64,000 nt of DNA, from contig MU004192.1 in the NCBI GenBank assembly GCA_010093605.1, forward strand, positions 1,631,464-1,695,463. The letters are read 5' to 3'. Source of the stretch: Lophium mytilinum (taxonomy: Eukaryota). Both the position numbers and the translations under genes were made by a program. Positions 38,515 to 56,457 of this stretch are shown piece after piece (position 1 is the first letter of the stretch; each line of letters begins with the position of its first letter). Below the pieces are notes generated by a model that saw only the letters and a list, made by a program, of their open reading frames with translations, was not told the origin of the DNA and ran no database searches.

Positions 38515-39851
38515 TCACCCCCTCTCCACTCCAACCGCTCTCCTCACAGCCCCGACTCCGTAATCGAGATACGTACTCAACCTCCGCTTGTGGCTCTTCG
38601 ATGTCTCAGCCTCTTCCTCGTTCTTGACCGTCTCAACATCGCCCTTTTCCTTCACCACCTCTTTCTCACTTTCCTTCAACCAAGCCGACTCCAAAACCTC
38701 CTGCGCCGTCGGTCTACTGGTAGGATCCGGATCCATAACCCACTTTAGAAACGCCACATCATCCTCCTGCACGCCCTTTTCTTTTAGGAAATGCCACTGC
38801 CGACCAGTCGGGTGCTCGCGATCTCTCGCTGGCAAAGTGCAATCAGCGTAGTACGGTATCGACGTTAAGTCGTAGTCGTTAGCCAGCGCATAGCGGATCG
38901 ATTGCTCCTGCTGAGAACGGAGACCGTGGCCGCTATAGAGGTCGTCGTAGAGGCCGCGGTCGGTGAAGTTGGTGCCGTTGGGCGATGGGGTCGGGGGATT
39001 GGAAATCGAAGTCGCGCTGTCGGTGCTGTTTGAGGTTTGCAGTGACGGCGGCGCGTTCGAAGGCGGCGGCGCGAGATGCGTGTTTGCTGGAGCTGAAACG
39101 AGGACGGGCGCGGGCATATTCGACCGCGCTTCGAGGAGATGGCACACTAGTAGTCCCCAGGACCAGATATCCGCGGCGGGGGTGATGCTGTGCTTGAAGT
39201 AGACTTCCGGCGCGCGGTATGTCAAAGGCTGGACAACGCCTTGAGTGGGTGGCATCACGATCCCTAGATCGCCGAGCTTGGTGACGAGGGTGTCTCCGTC
39301 TTTATCTTCACTCAAGGGATTGAAGCCGCTGACGAGGATGTTTTCCATCTTAAGGTCTGGATACTGTTAGCTTTGCGAAAATTTCATGTGCTTGGGGTAG
39401 AAGGAGAACCCATACCCGCATAAACCAGTCCTTTCTCATGCACACACACTAGCCCTTCAAGCGTATCCCGCATGATGCTCTTAATCTCACGCACGCTCAA
39501 CGGCCGCTTCGCACGCGCATCCCACACGGTCCCTTCCAGGATCTCGAGCACGATACGGGGTGGCTCGCCGTATTTCGAGGGTGGTATTTGGTCCACTTTT
39601 TGCCGGATCGCTGGGTCGTCTTTGAATAGCTCTTGCATTACCATCTCTTGCTGGAAATTGGGCCATGATGCGGCGGCGGAATCGTCCGATGCGGGTTGCT
39701 TGATGATGAAGACGGATGATTGCGTCTCGCTGTCAACGGCAGTCCAAACGTTTGGTTGGCCGAGGGGAGCCACGAGGAGGTAGTCTTTGTTGGAGTCGCC
39801 AGTGAGGGTTTGGCCTGCGTGAAGCTGATGAGATTGAGACATAGTTGACAT
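38515..39851 (-). CDS. Atypical Ser/Thr protein kinase; exons 39851-39416, 39356-38515
   Basis: FIIK (VAIK lysine), spliced catalytic loop VYA-DLKMEN, KLGDLG, QPLTYRAPE, DIWSWG, DPTSRPTA. Canonical intron 39415-39357. Confidence 0.85.
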
Positions 39852-43059: not shown

Positions 43060-44344
43060 GGTGGTGAGGTGAGATTTGATTCTGAGTGTGTGTGTTGACT
43101 GAGTGTAATAGAATGGTTATGTCTGAGTGATAGAATTCAGTTGGAGTACTGAGAGGGGTGTTTAGTAGGTTGTTGAGACTGCAGGTTTCGGCGTAGTGGT
43201 GATGATAGGGCTCGATTTCTTAGTTCGGAGTCAGAAGTTCGATTGATGACTATTCAACCCGGATTCTAAAAGGCACCTGGGCCAAGAGTGTGGTAAAGAA
43301 AGATTGATTAACAATCACGCTTAGGCAGCACTCCGCCAGTCCCGCAGAATTCGATTTGGCTTCTGTGGGCGACGGGCAATGTGAGGTCAGCGTCGCAGGT
43401 AGGTTGTTGAGATCGAGATGGATGCAGTGAGAGGCTCGGCGATGCATTGATGCAGATGCACCATCAGTGGGGTAGTCACGTGATCCTGATCATGATCGAT
43501 GAACACCTTGAATCTCGGTTTTGGTAGTGTATAACAGGTTCTATGTATGTGTCTGCCCAGACTTCATCAGATTCCTTGTGCTTGCAGGGTCTAGAACCCT
43601 GCTAAAGATCACGTGACCAACTCCCTCCCTCCATTCTCTCATTCTCGTCTTCCATCTCTCAACCATCACGGCTTTCTCGATATAGCATAATCAGCAATAC
43701 GCCGTATCTACCTCACACCGTAAGCCGTTGATACTGAGCCTTTGCTCGCTCGCACTGTGCGATACCCGTCGCAGCTCCGCAGCCTACAGCCTCGTTGATC
43801 TCAGTACATTTTGCGCTCGCCAATTATTCTACATCCCTTCTGGCGGCGAATGTTAGGCGTTTCTCTCAGAAAACATGGCGCGCCTCTAGAAAGAGATGGA
43901 ACACTGCGGTCTTACTTCATGCTCCCAATGCATCTGCCTTACGATCGTCAATTTGGGTGTCCAATGATTCTCGAGATTTCGATTCTCGACAGCCTTACGA
44001 TTGATTGGATTTCCAGCCTGGTCCCCGGGAGCACTGTAGTCGCCTCCGGTGAGGGTATGCAGCCAAGATATGCAGCCCCTCAGATTTGACTGCGCCACAG
44101 CGCTTCCAATGTCTGAACTTATCCCGCCTTCTCCATAACGAAGCCGATATCAGTCACACATACCCATCAACGAGTTCCCTCTACTGAGCTCAGAGCGCCT
44201 TTCTTCCGTACTTTCAGTATCTTTCAAAGTGTCCCGCACTATCCCTTCCTCGTGGAAGTGTGCGCGGGATAATAAAGCCCGCTTCAGCCTGGTGGAGATA
44301 ACTCTTCTCGCGAAGATAGCTCTTCTGACGAAGAGATCGACAAA

Positions 44345-47300
44345 ATGGCCAATCGGCTGAGCTCTTTTGACGAGTCTCTTCGAAGTCCAGCGCCCGACGA
44401 CAAAGACTTCCCGGAAATCCCAGAGGAGATTCATAGAAACCCCAAACCCGAGCTGCCTAATAGCAGAATCAAACGTAACCCGCGTCCGGCATCGAAAACG
44501 CCTAAACTTCGAGAACCAAGTTCTCTGTCGGCTCGCTACAGTGACCTTCGTCGTGATAGTCCTAGTGAACCAGCAGATGAGTCGTCGAGCCATTCAACAC
44601 GAGGGCGCCTTGATCGAAAACCAACGAACAAAATAGAGTCCGCTCCTCGTGCTGTGGATCTTAACGAATCGGCATTAAACCGGTACACCCCTGTAGATCC
44701 ACACCAGCTGCGCGACTCTCCTCTGTTTCGACAACCAGATGGTCTCCCTTCCTTTGAACAATGGAAGAAGCCACGGCCCGCTAGGGACTGTGCATTATGT
44801 GGAGAACTTCATCTTACAGGGGATCTTCCGTCTCTTACGAACTGTAACCATCATCCAAAAGTGTGCAGAGATTGCTACTGTGTCTGGCTTGAGTCGGAAT
44901 TGAATTCAAAAGGCTGGAGGCAAATCAAATGTCCAGAAGTAGGTTGCAAAGAGTTTCTGAATCACGCGGAGATGCAGCAATATGCCTCACCGGAAGTTTT
45001 TGCACGATTCGACGCTCTCTCTATCCTTGATTCTGTACAGGACAATCGTAACATCCGATGGTGTCGCAATCCTGATTGCAAATCGGGCCAAAAAATTGAA
45101 CCAGACGCCTGTAGTCACCTGTCCCGGTGCATAGCCTGTGGCTTTGAATCCTACACCTTCCTTGGGGAAGGCCCACACGAAGGGGAAACTTCTAGAGAAT
45201 TTGATCTCAGAACTAGGATAGAAAATGAAAAGTCCCAGACTGCATCTGAAGCGTCAGCATCAGCAATATCTCAAGGTGTGAAGAAATGCCCTGGGCAAAA
45301 CTGTGGCTGGAATGTTGAAAAGCTTGAGGGCGACGATCACATGACTTGTAAGTCTAGCATGCCTCCCTGTGCCTAACCACAGTTTAAACAGAATGCTGAC
45401 GAAGGACGGTATCTTCAAATCTAGGCTCAAAGTGTAGACATGAATTTTGTTGGAACTGTCTAGCTGGCTATCAGGCCATCCGGAACAAAGGCAGCTCAGA
45501 GCATGCCACAAATTGCGCTCACCATCCGAATCAACGGCATGCTATCGACGATGGCGCAGTCGCGAATAGGAAAGCTCCGGCAGAAGCTGAAGTTCAAGAC
45601 ACAGCTAATAAAGCATCGACTAAGATACAACCCAGCACGCTAAAGGTGTGGAAGGAGACCCTAGGTAACCAACCCTCTGAATCACCGCAAAGGCGGAGCA
45701 CTCGTAAGAAAGGCGGCTTCCCTTGTTTGCACTCTGGGTGTGGTAGGGCGTTTGACAGGCTCCGTGATCTTCAGTAAGTTTCTTTATCTTAGATTGCAAA
45801 CTTCCCTACTAACAACTTAGACGTCATACTAAGGTGCACTTCGACAAATCCGAGCGGCCGTACAAGTGTCCGTCCTGCTCCGAGGCCTTTATCTACCCTA
45901 GAGACCTCGAGCGTCACCAGCGCACCCATCGTACCCTGCCTGTCCCACAGCAGAAGATATACTGCCCCGTGAGGGGATGCTCAAACACCAAAGGATTTGG
46001 TCAGGAGGATGTCTTCACACGACACATGCGCAATCAGCACCCCGACGCCGCTGTCGAGATCCAAGCAGAGAAACGTGCGGAAAATCATCATTTGGAAGCA
46101 ATTTCGACGGATTTGTGGGTTTACGATCGTGATTTAGAGGACGATGATTCAGTCTTGTCTGACCGTGGAAGTCAAGGTTCCGCCGTGTCTGCAGTGTCAT
46201 CCGCTACTTCCTTCGGTATCCACCTCCCGGCACTTACTGACCAGTTTGTAAGCGTGGTCCTGAAAGACGCCGGTATGAAGTCACTACTTTTCAGCGGGTT
46301 TGATGCGATGAGTAGAGACCGATTCGAGCGGAATACACGCCGTCTATTAAGGCGTTATGCTCTCAATCTTATCAAATCAGCGTCCAACGAAATCCAGATT
46401 CGAGCTGCGAAGTACATCAGAAATCAGAGTCGTCTGATAGCTAATCGCATTCTATACAACATCACACCCTTAGAGCATGCGAGTTCTAGCACGATGGATG
46501 AGCTTGTGAAAACACAAACGGCACTGCCTACGTTGACCGGTGTTCAGAAATCAGAGCGCTTCCTCGAGCAAGAAGTGCCAACGGAGGAAATGGAAGATCC
46601 AAGCCAGCCATCCAAGGAGCAGGTCCCGGACGGGCACTGGTCTGATTCCGATAACTCTGATGATGACGCCCATTCATCATCACAAGAGACTATTGACATT
46701 CAACCTCTCCTACCGTTCTTGATATACAGCGACCAGTTTGAAATGTTGAGGGAAGAACTGATGAACTTTGTCATTCCGACGCAGCTAGCAAACCATAAGT
46801 TGATGGATTGGAGCTTCCCAGCGCCTCAAAGCGCGATAGAGGTGAGACCAATCGTCCCCCTCTACCGAAGTTACTCGATATCCCATTCGATCCTAACATC
46901 ATGATAGTGCACTCACTGTATGCAGCAAGAACAGCGATGCCGTGGTTTTCCCACGGAAGGAGTAGTGTACGAAACGCTAAAGGCTGCAAAAGCCTTCCTC
47001 AGCTCATGTCCACTGCAAAATCATCTCCATTATCATTGCCTAGCCCTGATAAGTCAGTGTAAGTTCATTCGGATCTCTTTCCTCGACTTATTGGAGTTCG
47101 GAGTTGATAGAGCATAGGTCGTCGATCTCCGCTTCCAAGTGACATTAGCGAAAGTCTGATCGCCGATATCCTAGCAGTGTGTAGCTGTAGCAACCGGACC
47201 GACGTCAAACCGGATCTCATTTTTCAGATACTGAAAGGCGTGGAGCAAGGCGTGGAAAATGAGTCCACCAGAATACTACAAGAGCGCTACCAGCATCCTG

Positions 47301-48700
47301 AGTCCGCAAGCCAGACAAAGGCTGCGACAAACTCACAAACTAGTGCCCACTTGGAAAGACTACTTGAGCTGCAACAGGAAATTCAAAACTTGGTTCAACA
47401 GCCTATAGCAATGGATACAGGGGCGCCCTTGGTCACTAATATCCTTGAGGCCTACCACGAAAGCGAACTTTTCAGCCACACATCAATTAGTCCATCATCT
47501 AAGGGACTTTCCATTGATGCGACACCCTCACGATGCAAACCACAACAGGCTTTCGGAGCGCCGACGGGCTACTGGCAAATGATCGCGAAAGGCTGGAGTA
47601 AGATAAGAAGGCCGCGAGTGCCTTCAGGGATGAAGAGAATCGAGTGGACCTGTGTAAGTCAAGCCAAAAAAAAAGCGCAAAGGCTTTGGAAGCTTACAGT
47701 GCCAGGACTGCGGCCATGAGCTTTACGGTGACTTTAACGACTCGGATCCAAACGCGCTCAAGAGCTTGGAAGCTGCTCTGCAGAACTGTGACCCCGAATC
47801 GCAAAGCAACACGTCTCTAAATTCCGACTCTGGCAGCCTAGCTAGCACATCAAGTAATCCAACAACGTCGACAAACGCTGCAAGCGGTGGAGTTTCAAAT
47901 AGCCATGTTCCTACAAACCAACCATCGACTTCCCAAGTACAGAAACCCGGGGAATCGCTGGCGGAAGAAGCCCAAGCTGCCTTGCCGAGATATCTTGCAA
48001 TCTGCGTCAACACTGGAGGCATTTACGTGACTCTGTCTGAGATTTCTGTACCAAGAAACACTTCCGATGCCGCTCTATTTGATATGATCAAAATATCATA
48101 CCAGAAGCTCCGTGGGTTCCGCATCCGCTTTGCGTTTCTCTTGAGACCTATAGGCGTGGAATTCGTTTATGTAAGATGCCCTCAGAAAACGAAGCTACTC
48201 AACATAATCCGTCTACGTGGGTTGCTGACCACTGATAATAGTTCACCCTCTGGAACCTTCGCAAAGGCTACGTCTCCATCTGTGACCGACCTCGATGCGT
48301 CCCACCGGAGAGCCTCTCCGACTACGAGTTCCTCCCGCGTCCGATCGTCCCGCTCCCCCCAATGCCATCTGAAGTCTTCATCCACTACCTTCAACATGGC
48401 GATGGGGACCTCAATCCGGTTCGCAGTATCTGGGCACCTCGTCTCCCGAAGCGGCTGCACAGCCCGATCGTCAACGCTGACATGCCAAGTTACGGATGGG
48501 GAATTCACATTGTTGAAGGGACGAACCGGGTGCTTGTCTTTTGGATCTTCATGTTCACAATCTTCGCTAGTATCCTAACGACTGTACTCTGGTCTTCGTT
48601 CAAGCACGATGTTCAGGGCGGGTCGGGTCTTGGGTCGTTGATCGTGGCGCTGCCGTCCGTCGTATTGATGGCGTGGCTGTTCAGACTTGGTGCAACATAG
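44345..48700 (+). CDS. Predicted 1327-aa fusion: RING-IBR-RING (RBR) + three C2H2 zinc fingers + uncharacterised fungal domain with two C-terminal TM helices; exons 44345-45347, 45425-45773, 45821-46841, 46908-47058, 47118-47653, 47706-48170, 48242-48700
   Basis: RING1 CALC..CNH..CRDC..CPEVGC; degenerate IBR WCRNPDC..CIAC; RING2 CPGQNC..HMTC-SKCRHEFCWNC; C2H2 fingers CLHSGC..H..H, CPSC..H..H, CPVRGC..H..H. All six GT-AG introns give one continuous frame. Confidence 0.75.
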
Positions 48701-51848: not shown

Positions 51849-53689
51849 TCAAAGCTCCTTCCAACCTTCGCCTTCCCGCCACTTCTTCCACTGCTCCGCC
51901 TTCCACGACGACTGACATTCCCGCACATACTTCCTGCGCACATTCCACTTCAGCCCATCCTGACCTGGGGTGTACAGCGTGATCTCGTCCCGATACATAT
52001 CCCAAAACTCGGAGAACTGCTCGGTGATTGCATCATCTTTCCGCGAGGACGACTCCAGAGCGAACTTAACATCAAGAAACAATTTGACAGTTTGTGACCG
52101 AATGTGCGACTGGAGCCCGGAAAACGGGCAGGGCACTTCGCGGGGGAACTTCTTCAAAACGTGTTCGGAACGAGCTTGGTCATACACGACCTGAGCGGGG
52201 ATCAGGTCCAATCTGTTGAGCTTGAGTGCGTGGTGAAGCCAGAAGTGTAGTCGACGGTAGGTATCCTGGTAGCCCCACCCACTCGGCTTTCCGTAAGCGA
52301 GGAAATTGCCGATGCCGAAATTCGTCTTCTCAAGGAAACACTCGAGCGGAGTATTTCCAGATATATCTCGCGCTGTGGGATCAGCCCCCGCCTCCATCAA
52401 CAGTGCCGGGTATGGTATAATGCCGTAAGCGCGCTTCCAGGAGTCCTTTGCTTCCATGACAATGTGGAGCGCCGTTTTCCCTTTGCGGTTTAGGACGTTC
52501 AGGTCCTCGCAGAGAGATAGCAGAAGTGCGAAACCGTTCGGACTCATCAGGCTGAAGTTTTTTGCGGGATGGGCGACAACCTTATGGATCGGATAGTCTT
52601 TTTCCACATACGGGATGTTGGGGTTGGCGCCGTGCTGTAGGAGTATTTCTGCAATCATTCGTCGGTCGACTATATGGCCTTGGCCCAGAGCTTCAAGGGT
52701 GCGGTTGAGTGGACTGATGGAATCGCCTGCTTGTCCGTCGTTCGGATCCATCCCTGCCTCGAGTAATGTCTTGACCATAGGGAGGTGGAAGTTGTCCACT
52801 GCGTGGCACAGAATGTTCCCGGCGTCGGAAGCCCAGCTGAGATCCACCCCATTGTTGATCAGGACCGTGAGTAGCCTTGGCGATTGCGCTCTGAACACAT
52901 GTGGGACCGGGGAAGCCAGAACGGCTTGTGTTGAAGTATCGTATGGCCACCGTATGTTGGAATTTGACAGGTGCATAGGATTCGCTCCTAACTCGAGCAG
53001 CAACTCGAGCTTTCAGCCATTAGTCTATCCTTTGAAGTCAGCGCAGCAGTTGAGAGACTCACAGTTTCGATCTCCCGGCTTCCCACTTCGTAACAGTTAT
53101 CCCATATGCGATCACGATCAGGACACGCCCCAAAACCCCAAACTTTGTCATCGGTTTCGCCTTGTATGCCGAAATAGCCCAACCAATACTGAAGCAAGTC
53201 TGTCACCTGACTACTCAGAATGTTGCGGTCTTTCGCTAGCCGCTGTGCGTGTTGCAATAGTGAGAGAAGGGTATCAGTGTAATAGTCTGAATCGGAGGAG
53301 TCTGCAGATTCCATGATTTCGATGAGCCATGGAATGGCTTGCCAGTATCCATTCTCCGACTTGCCGCTGGCATTGTGATCTAGCAGGTACTGGGTAAGGC
53401 GTCGATTTTGCTGACGCATTGCCCATATCATAGCCGGAAATGGTTCACAATCGCAGGCATCCGGCCAAGTCTCCCTGCTAGCGACAAAGACTGTTGGAAA
53501 TCGATGACGAACCCACCTGTTGCCGCTGCGTTCGCAGTCGGTCCTGTCCCGAACAGCGCGTTTATGCAACTCCGGCTGCAGGAACACATGGATTTCGGAG
53601 TGAGTTCGAATGAGGTTGTTGAGATCGGAGTCCAGGAGCAATTTCGAGATCTCCAATAGGATCTCGTTTGGGATTGTATGCAGCGCCAT
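51849..53689 (-). CDS. F-box-like + ankyrin-repeat protein, copy 1; exons 53689-53063, 53009-51849
   Basis: N-terminal LHTIPNEILLEISKLL..DLNNLIRT (F-box-like); ankyrin repeats (LLEAGMDPN, LLQHGANPN, GKTALH, GNTPL). Phase-0 intron restores frame. Confidence 0.85.
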
Positions 53690-54722: not shown

Positions 54723-56457
54723 CTACTCCTGCCCATCCCGCCACACCTGCCACTCCCGAGCCGTCCAGGCTGGCCAGTCCGCCCACGCCCTCTCCCAGTT
54801 TTCCTGATCAAGCCGTGAAATTGTATCCAACTCCTCATACTCCGGCGGAGTCAAAATATCGTGTTTATGCTTTTCCCAGAAAGCGCGGAACTTCAACCCC
54901 ATCGGTCCTCCCTTCCATGGAAATGACTCAAAAGCGTACATAACGTCAAGGAAGGCCTTCACTGTCGACGAATCGACGTGCTCCCGTTGATGGGCATCCG
55001 GGGGCCAGACCGTTTCTTCAATATGCTTTCCCAGGACGTGCTCCGCATATGTTTGCTCGTATACGATCCGAGCGGGCAATAGATCCAGTCGATTGAGTTT
55101 GAGTGCGTAGTTGGTCATAAAATGAAGGCGCTCGTAGACGTGAGGCATAGAGCCCGTACAGCTGCCGACGCCGAAGGTGGATGTTCCAAGAGCGCACTGG
55201 AAGGGAGTGCGTCCAGACGAGTCGGGCAAGTCCAGGTTCGCCCCCGCGTCCATCAAGATCTTCGCGCACCACAGCGAGTTGTCTTCGCAAAAGGCGTTCT
55301 TTCCGTGTTGCCCCATGACAATATGCAGTGCGGTCTCGCCTTTGCCGTTCTGTACGTTGACGTTGCTGCAACGGCTTACGAGAAGCTGGAAGTATTCCTT
55401 GTTCATTGGCAGATAGGTTTCGTCGATTTCGGTAACCGCTACATGGATTGGGTACTCCTTGCCGTGAAGCGGTGTATCGGGATTGGCGCCATATTGAAGA
55501 AGCAGCTCTACGAGCTTGGCTTGCGCCCTCTCTTCCTCATACTCGTCGCTTATCCCATGAATACTAGTGAATGCCTCGTAAAGCGGGGGGAACATCTCTA
55601 CCTGTCCGCTATCGTTGGGATCCATACCAGCTTTCAGCAGCGCCTCAACCACGGGAAAGGGAAGCCTTCCGACAGCATACTGGAGGACGTTCTCAGTCCC
55701 TGAAGAAGACCATTTCAGATTTGCCCCGTATCTGATGAATAATGCAAGAATTTCGGGCGAAGAGACCCGGAAAAGGTTAGGTATTTTAGGAAATGACTCG
55801 AACACGATTGAATGAAAAACTATATCATATGACAGTGCCATGGGATCTGCCCCCAATTGAAGTAGCATTTCGACCTGTAACCTATCAGCAATCGTCTTTT
55901 GGAGATCTTGAAGCTACTCGGTGACATACCATCTCAATATAGCTCTGCTCAACCGTCCCTTGGGTACAGAATTTTTCCTCCCTTGTCAGTCGCAAATGCT
56001 CACCCATGAGATGATTCAGAGAATTTGTCAGGAGTGTTGTGAGCTGACCACCAAGGACTTTACTGTTCTTCCCCGACTGGTGTACATGTTCCAAGAGAAT
56101 GAGAATACTGCCAAGGTAGTGATGGGGATAAACCCCGACCGTTTCGATGACGGGCCAATATCCATCTACCGTCATCCCATCAAGATTGTGGCGTAATAGG
56201 TATTGCAATAGATGACCGTTTTGGTGTCTCAATGCCCAGTGCATCGAGGAGTCTTGGCAGCCATCAGCATATGCTCCGTTGTAGTGACCAGAGTCTAGAC
56301 TGATTAGGGACCGGTCCTTCACCGCGCGCTGGTGCAGCTCAGGGTGTAGGAAATCGTAAATGTTCCGATGCGCTTGGGCAAGGTTGTTGAGGTCGGAATC
56401 CTTGAGCCACTTGAAAACCTCCAAGAGGATCTCATTGGGAACCGTGTGGAGCGCCAT
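54723..56457 (-). CDS. F-box-like + ankyrin-repeat protein, copy 2; exons 56457-55930, 55874-54723
   Basis: MALHTVPNEILLEVFKWL..DLNNL; ankyrin repeats (LLKAGMDPN, LLQYGANPD, GETALH, GRTPF). Same intron position as copy 1. Confidence 0.85.

Follow-up and report, generated by a model that had tools for sequence, protein, structure and literature searches.

A seven-exon gene of Lophium mytilinum with a putative RBR pseudo-ligase head, C2H2 fingers and a predicted membrane-anchored tail

What becomes of an RBR ubiquitin ligase module when the residue at its catalytic position is no longer cysteine, and what is such a module doing at the head of a protein with C2H2 zinc fingers and a hydrophobic C-terminal hairpin? 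These questions are raised by a locus of the fungus Lophium mytilinum at positions 44345-48700, forward strand, of a stretch of 64,000 nucleotides, called the window here (contig MU004192.1, positions 1,631,464 to 1,695,463, of assembly GCA_010093605.1). According to two publications (PMC11354881, PMC9834252), RBR catalysis runs via a thioester on a cysteine of the RING2 domain; at this position the Lophium protein has an aspartate. We consider it probable that the locus is one seven-exon gene for a membrane-tethered C2H2 regulator, in which a chassis consisting of a middle region and a tail carries a duplicated, non-catalytic RBR head. A preliminary description of the window had already proposed a single spliced gene of 1327 amino acids (aa) with these parts. 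Several questions follow. Is it a single gene? Is the aspartate real, and has the head lost anything else? What are the fingers attached to? Where did the head come from, and does it still do anything?

Structure of the gene and its transcripts

In the model rebuilt from the window sequence, the seven exons listed below join into 3984 nucleotides (nt), a frame of 1327 codons and a stop codon with no internal stop, and the six introns (77, 47, 66, 59, 52 and 71 nt) all run from GT to AG. The start codon at 44345 is the first in-frame ATG, an in-frame stop lying immediately before 44276. A single public run, X1, carries the stretch; its RNA label is a guess only, and we treat it as transcript-derived because its contigs skip GT..AG introns. 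Nine X1 contigs are placed on the region at 99% or above. They splice out 45348-45424, 45774-45820, 46842-46907, 47059-47117 and 48171-48241, which are five of the six modelled introns, all GT..AG (the joint of intron 3, reported by the contig alignment as 46840-46905 with the mark 'cut +2', equals 46842-46907). One contig runs unbroken from 43999 to 45769, through the start codon, the RBR part, spliced intron 1 and the linker into finger 1, so that a single RNA contains both the RBR part and the first of the zinc fingers. Exon 2 contains the point where the two meet, away from any intron.

43999..44344, + strand: 5′ transcript leader (X1 contig record 1, colinear with 43999-45347)
44345..45347, + strand: exon 1, aa 1-334 and the first base of codon 335, with a disordered N-terminus, RING1, IBR and the first half of RING2
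45425..45773, + strand: exon 2, with the remaining RING2, a 42-aa polar linker and the first half of finger 1 (X1 record 1 crosses to 45769)
45821..46841, + strand: exon 3 (rebuilt model, X1 contigs)
46908..47058, + strand: exon 4 (rebuilt model, X1 contigs)
47118..47653, + strand: exon 5, ending in the first half of an EWTC/DCG motif (X1 record 3 covers it to 47412)
47706..48170, + strand: exon 6 (model and homologues), with an alternative acceptor at 47700 in the public model P0001
48242..48700, + strand: exon 7, with the stop codon at 48698-48700 (rebuilt model, X1 contigs)

The leader is at least 346 nt long and contains short upstream ATG frames, for example from the ATG at 44057 to a stop at 44087-44089; translational control through such frames is possible.

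How does this model compare with the public record? In the public annotation of L. mytilinum, only a C-terminal piece of 334 aa was found (BU16DRAFT_513669, P0001), which starts at a Met inside exon 5. When the protein collection was searched with exon 1 among proteins of 586-2000 aa, there was no match (none of 1768 candidates passed), and exon 3 among proteins of 596-2000 aa gave 13 matches, all via the fingers, of which the named ones are animal proteins, with no fungal relative. As both searches covered longer proteins only, the RBR part may still have a short public model.

The frame of exon 5 is open for 154 codons upstream of the Met at which P0001 starts. A transcript contig connects the sequence before this Met with exons 4 and 3, and that sequence is kept in the Mytilinidion protein P0002 (32/60 identical) and in the 1272-aa Pseudogymnoascus protein P0029. 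The EWTC/DCG motif, which is split by intron 5, is unbroken in homologues, and blastp finds the middle region and the tail colinear in one chain in P0029 (33% identity over aa 591-903), P0013, P0025, P0010 and P0008. As the acceptor of intron 5, 47706 is favoured over 47700 because the homologues read EW.CDCG; the acceptor used in P0001 inserts two residues to give WTCCQDCG. The same intron contains a run of nine A residues at about 47668-47676, and a related Logan protein, P0003, reads through it in frame.

Instead of one gene there could be two or more: an upstream gene for the RBR part and the zinc fingers, and an independent gene for a 334-aa tail beginning at the exon 5 Met. Several observations weigh against our reading here. 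P0001 has exactly that length, short tail-only models occur in other species too (P0004, P0006, P0007, P0012), and no longer protein with exon 1 or exon 3 came out of the collection at the lengths given above. None of the listed X1 contigs connects exon 5 with exon 6: intron 5 (47654-47705) is absent among their joints, depth is low at 47664-47847, and the depth bins appear to reflect a contig gap at about 47612-47788. An extra, shorter product consisting of the tail may also arise from an internal start. Separate genes are nevertheless improbable, given the frame that stays open before the Met and is conserved in P0002 and P0029, the contigs that tie this part to exons 4 and 3, the long homologues that hold the middle region and tail in one protein, and the lack of room for a promoter or a terminator in between. 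That the locus is a single gene, as the preliminary description had it, we regard as very probable on the open frame, the five introns seen in transcript contigs and the colinearity of homologues, and the public annotation splits this 1327-aa gene into pieces.

An RBR head with aspartate at the catalytic position

The N-terminal part of the protein contains the elements of an RBR module in their usual order, as follows.

44789..44947, + strand: RING1, aa 149-201 (family columns held by 64-66 of 66 relatives; ARIH1 alignment)
45062..45193, + strand: degenerate IBR, aa 240-283 (Pfam IBR 26.7 bits against a cut-off of 24.3)
45287..45516, + strand: RING2, aa 315-365, split by intron 1, structural ligands kept
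45332..45334, + strand: Asp330 (GAC) at the catalytic cysteine position (ARIH1 alignment, relatives, transcript contigs)

Pfam reports no RBR-associated domain besides the IBR. The order and spacing of RING1, IBR and RING2 are the same as in ARIH1 (HHARI) and RBCK1 (HOIL-1; PDB 5udh, 4kbl, 8eaz), which phmmer matches over aa 145/164-333 with expectation values (E) of 5.2e-5 and 1.1e-4, respectively, and the RING2 motif EK..G.xHM is common to them. In the phmmer alignment against the PDB, VEKLEGDDHM of the Lophium head pairs with IEKDGGCNHM of ARIH1, so that the first of the two Asp residues, Asp330, falls on the catalytic Cys. The head differs from ARIH1 and RBCK1 in this Asp, in the loss of the second zinc site of the IBR, and in its fusion to fingers and a membrane tail.

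To what extent is the Asp exceptional? An exhaustive phmmer search over 1.84 billion representatives returned 1907 relatives at E ≤0.001, 24 of them at ≤1e-30. The catalytic position was read in the best 150 of the 1907, in 124 of which the blastp high-scoring pair (HSP) covers position 330 (in 26 it does not). Cys is present in 122 of these 124, within the motif IEKxxGCDHMTC, and Asp331, beside Asp330, is the normal family residue of this motif (GCDHMTC). Among the two others, one has Arg (P0062) and the apparent Lys of the second is a one-residue misalignment beside a Cys. P0062 is a 206-aa ENA entry from a 1352-bp contig, reading GRDHMTC with Arg for the catalytic Cys; it could be another pseudo-ligase or an error.

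A stricter comparison was made with the 66 relatives whose HSP spans RING1 to RING2, all 66 of which have Cys in the catalytic column. Thirty-eight columns are at least 90% conserved, and the head departs from them at six: F237I, C270Y, H273L, C283S, C330D and N358S. The median number of such departures in the family is zero, and 2/66 relatives reach six. RING1 keeps all eight of its zinc ligands (C149, C152, C167, H169, C174, C177, C196, C201), and RING2 keeps all eight structural ligands (C315, C320, C335, C338, C343, C346, H361, C365) as well as His332. The IBR keeps five of eight (C240, C245, C262, C265, H278): its zinc site I is intact, and three of the four ligands of site II are gone, Y270, L273 and S283 replacing the C, H and C of 65, 65 and 66 of the 66 relatives. 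The earlier claim that the IBR had lost ligands and that RING1 was intact therefore stands, with three of eight gone in the one and none in the other.

Codon 330 is GAC at 45332-45334, and the X1 contig that covers it has no differing letters. Since the transcript contigs report no base differences, GAC is taken as real and not as an error of assembly, and with Cys in 122/124 homologues the Cys/Asp check suggested by the preliminary description agrees with its claim that the catalytic Cys has been replaced by Asp. Two other accounts of this codon were considered. An assembly or sequencing error was ruled out, independent transcript contigs being in agreement, and A-to-I editing was ruled out by the genetic code, as GAC cannot become a Cys codon.

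With Asp330 and without site II of the IBR, the head would be unable to form an E3~ubiquitin thioester and would therefore be a pseudo-ligase. We infer that it is catalytically dead and cannot ligate. Judged from its sequence, it is a descendant of the RBR family that fails two of the defining features, and it is not filed here as a functional RBR ligase. The literature searches turned up no description of RBR proteins without the catalytic Cys, nor of an RBR expansion in Pezizomycotina, and a metagenome scan with the RBR part gave 93 pattern matches, none of which was confirmed.

The direct sequence family of the head is that of Pezizomycotina RBR proteins with the motif IEKxxGCDHMTC, which includes a paralogue in L. 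mytilinum itself, BU16DRAFT_221230 (P0046, 'RBR-type E3 ubiquitin transferase' in UniProt). These relatives seem to share with the head the intron after HMT, to judge from public models that derail after GCDHMTC. Many public RBR models (P0041-P0044, P0047, P0048 and others) turn into unrelated residues at this point; the conserved phase-1 intron seems often to have been missed in annotation, truncating RING2 in many database entries.

Fingers, middle region and tail

What is the head attached to? Downstream of the RBR part, the protein contains three zinc fingers followed by two regions to which Pfam assigns no family.

45724..46040, + strand: three C2H2 fingers, aa 435-457 (split by intron 2), 467-487 and 499-524 (Pfam, motif scan)
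46068..47302, + strand: conserved middle region, aa ~534-903, exons 3-5 (blastp, alignment A2; no Pfam family)
47570..48697, + strand: C-terminal module, aa ~993-1327, common to 39 Pezizomycotina proteins
47979..48526, + strand: beta-grasp-like core, aa ~1112-1270 (P0001 model, mostly 83-90 in the predicted local distance difference test, pLDDT)
48527..48697, + strand: C-terminal hydrophobic hairpin of two helices, aa ~1271-1296 and 1299-1326 (hydropathy, P0001 model)

The fingers are of an ordinary kind: finger 2 scores 29.3 bits in Pfam PF00096 (zf-C2H2) against a cut-off of 25.2, and finger 3 has a longer spacer. Pfam detected no family over the middle region or tail in exons 4-7 or in 17 tail homologues. 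The Atlas search with exon 3 gave only generic C2H2 clusters (0.89-0.91), with recognition below the bar. Searching with exon 7 gave 39 proteins at E 4.5e-99 to 6.6e-31, all of which align to aa ~993-1327; in five of them (P0029, P0013, P0025, P0010, P0008) a second blastp HSP falls on the middle region, motifs of which are also visible in kinase-headed members (alignment A2).

An AlphaFold model of P0001, made with 37 aligned relatives (mean pLDDT 72.3, predicted template modelling score 0.69), has a small unit of beta-hairpin type, a disordered linker, a core of mixed alpha/beta structure and, at the terminus, two long helices. These helices (residues 278-303 and 306-333 of the model) make up the hairpin within the last 60 residues of the protein, and in them alone do 19-aa windows have a mean Kyte-Doolittle hydropathy of at least 1.6. 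Similar structures are found among small membrane hairpins, for example Vma21p (Z 7.2, root mean square deviation 1.8, 56 aligned), and the hairpin would be expected to insert into a membrane. A wide VIA-align search was uninformative, its top 50 rows all lying on the helical hairpin (best Z 7.3), and the structural rows of the Atlas for the tail core have TM values of 0.21-0.26. Three Cys residues of the tail are nearly invariant, namely those of C.C in EWTCDCG and the Cys of LALCVN (P0001 residues 18-38 and 127; aa ~1013-1031 and 1120), with a metal site or a disulfide as possible functions.

What stands in front of the tail in other proteins? Among the 17 tail homologues scanned, Pfam found an NDT80 head in three, Myb in two (one just below the cut-off), a kinase in two, ankyrin in two and none in eight. 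The NDT80-headed P0013, P0025 and P0029 match the Lophium gene in the middle region as well as in the tail. ESM Atlas clusters with the same predicted tail structure include one that is auto-named C2H2 transcription factor (88 members) and one of kinases (87 members). By homology, then, the middle region and tail appear to constitute a widespread unnamed family of Pezizomycotina with interchangeable heads (NDT80, Myb, C2H2, kinase, ankyrin). The preliminary description had found the whole architecture unfamiliar. This remains fair for the addition of an RBR part; the combination of fingers and tail is not new, as the 88-member cluster, from Ascomycota, bears both. The fingers and a C-terminal membrane anchor that it reported are recovered by Pfam, motif scan, hydropathy and the P0001 model, and its suggestion of a membrane-tethered regulator is strengthened by the DNA-binding heads (NDT80, Myb) that the same middle and C-terminal module bears elsewhere.

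Precedents exist for such tethering. In Mga2/Spt23 and in SREBP/Sre1, a DNA-binding part is held at the membrane by C-terminal or hairpin helices, and its release involves ubiquitin ligases, Cdc48 and proteolysis. The tethering logic would be the same in the Lophium family, with no sequence relation and a putative release; Pfam found no bHLH, IPT/TIG or MYRF domain in the Lophium protein or in the tail homologues scanned. A closer parallel may be the fungal NDT80-plus-transmembrane proteins proposed in a 2026 paper as a new class of membrane-bound transcription factors (PMC13294678), which according to that paper lack the MYRF autoprocessing domain, have a transmembrane domain that is conserved, and belong to orthogroup ENOG502D42H. 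They have an NDT80 head, compared with RBR and C2H2 in the Lophium gene. Both ENOG502D42H and the example accession are absent from one supplement of that paper, and the two families are only possibly the same. Apart from this NDT80 subset, the literature searches, which did not target the tail module itself, turned up no description of the chassis.

Elsewhere in the window, ankyrin repeats occur in two downstream open frames of the opposite strand, at 51852-53012 (−; Pfam Ank_4, E 5.7e-10) and 54726-55913 (−; E 2.2e-13), ankyrin being also among the heads found on the tail module in other proteins. At 38518-39366 (−), an open frame matches Pfam Pkinase (E 1.4e-12) over the C-terminal half of the kinase domain.

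Origin and present role of the head

How did an RBR module come to be joined to this chassis? Its relatives are proteins of 400-770 aa in which the RBR stands C-terminally, and none of the best 150 has the finger, middle or tail part; the family thus differs from the Lophium gene in the position of the RBR, in its nearly invariant catalytic Cys and in the absence of any fusion partner from the chassis. Conversely, none of the 39 tail relatives aligns to aa 1-533. The best match to the head is P0040, a partial model of 139 aa from Mytilinidion resinicola with 70% identity to aa 149-287. A single Mytilinidion contig of 118,330 bp contains both P0040 and the tail protein P0002, with accessions two apart, and the head-next-to-tail arrangement therefore predates the split between Lophium and Mytilinidion. 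The RBR plus chassis has been seen only in these two genera.

In a maximum likelihood tree of RING1-IBR, built from the head and the 45 best-ranked of 132 eligible matches and rooted at the midpoint only, the head groups with P0040 (support 100/99), and the sister of this pair is the Lophium paralogue P0046 (99/94). Long branches lead to the head (stem 0.32 + 0.24, compared with 0.11 for P0046). By its place in this tree the head reads as a duplicate of a canonical RBR paralogue that afterwards evolved faster. The Mytilinidion orthologue shares the change of IBR H273 to L, retains C270 and C283, and has R for the RING1 ligand C167. Identity between the two genera varies along the protein as follows.

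RBR head: 97/139 (70%)
Linker segment, aa 1051-1112: 35/62 (56%)
Middle-region segment, aa 874-933: 32/60 (53%)
Tail core: 138/153 (90%)
Hairpin: 50/61 (82%)

Such figures suggest that constraint on the head is weaker than that on the tail, though not obviously absent.

On these grounds the following course of events is proposed. A canonical RBR ligase gene would have been duplicated before Lophium and Mytilinidion separated, and the duplicate would have been joined in frame to a finger gene and then evolved faster; with the change of the catalytic Cys to Asp and the loss of the second zinc site of the IBR, the RBR head would have become a pseudo-ligase. The hairpin would anchor the protein in an internal membrane, all the rest being on the cytosolic or nuclear side, and the finger part, which presumably binds DNA, would be a latent membrane-tethered transcription regulator that needs release, for example by proteolysis. 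The head at present is either a binding surface or a tolerated remnant. The complete RING1 and RING2 ligands would favour a fold that is retained, and the RING1 loss in Mytilinidion and the long branches would favour decay; we lean slightly towards the remnant.

Alternatively, and in extension of the E2-binding decoy or scaffold that the preliminary description had inferred, the head could be under selection as a decoy or scaffold that binds E2~ubiquitin and controls the finger protein, for example if it recruited an E2 or a ubiquitin-like partner, or sequestered one. The E2 variants known as UEVs offer a model for this, as their catalytic Cys is replaced, their fold is kept and they act by binding. 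The UEV class is old and conserved and its partners are proven, whereas the head has been seen in two genera only and has lost zinc ligands too. Such a role would fit the complete ligand sets of RING1 and RING2 and the kept His332, losses that centre on the catalytic Cys and one zinc site instead of being scattered, and a head that is better conserved between the genera than the linkers; even a partner might be at hand, in the weakly beta-grasp-like domain of the same protein, which could be ubiquitin-like. It is harder to reconcile with the Arg at RING1 ligand C167 in Mytilinidion, which should harm an E2-docking domain, with a lineage several times faster than its paralogue, and with the loss of IBR site II, which should destabilise the module, and on balance we think a selected decoy unlikely. 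More doubtful is an extension of the same idea, in which the middle region, the beta-grasp-like domain and the hairpin tail are a general device of Pezizomycotina that keeps signalling heads (NDT80, Myb, C2H2, kinase, ankyrin and, in Mytilinidiaceae, a dead RBR) at a membrane up to their release, and the pseudo-RBR in cis senses ubiquitin, a ubiquitin-like protein or an E2 and so gates the release of the fingers.

Could the head still be an active ligase, a plain RING-type E3 acting through RING1 or one that uses another nucleophile? The intact RING1 and His332 would allow for it, and yet the RING2-cysteine thioester that the publications cited at the outset describe is needed, position 330 is Asp, the neighbouring Asp331 is an ordinary family residue, and IBR site II is lost; we hold an active ligase to be very improbable. 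Equally hard to credit is that the whole locus is a decaying pseudogene whose frame is open by chance. Conserved RBR positions are indeed lost and the Mytilinidion models are partial and fragmented, and against this the frame of 1327 codons is held over six precisely spliced introns, the locus is transcribed and the tail core is 138/153 identical to that of Mytilinidion.

Some points also weigh against the reading that we prefer, in which a C2H2 regulator is membrane-tethered and its RBR head is non-catalytic. All 16 zinc ligands of RING1 and RING2 and His332 are kept, and the head is 70% identical between genera compared with 53-56% for the linkers, both of which speak against a purely neutral remnant; C167R in Mytilinidion speaks, for its part, against a conserved docking role. 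P0040 stops at aa 287, short of position 330. The likeness of the tail core to beta-grasp and ubiquitin-like chains is weak (VIA-align Z 3.2-4.5 over P0001 residues ~119-277), and Foldseek found nothing in the PDB for the P0001 model at E ≤0.001, the best value being 0.038. As to the label of a tethered transcription factor, the kinase and ankyrin heads make the chassis not specific to transcription factors; the label may be too narrow, and the chassis may anchor proteins to membranes more generally.

The gene offers a clean natural case of an RBR fold without its catalytic cysteine that is still in frame, transcribed and spliced. It also draws attention to a large unnamed family of Pezizomycotina in which one membrane-anchoring tail is combined with many regulatory heads. 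If the gating of finger release by the pseudo-RBR were true, a ligase fold would have become an internal regulator within a membrane-tethered transcription factor. If the members of the family are membrane-tethered regulators, they would represent an unexplored layer of signalling in filamentous fungi, and the head-swapped members would be natural experiments for studying it.

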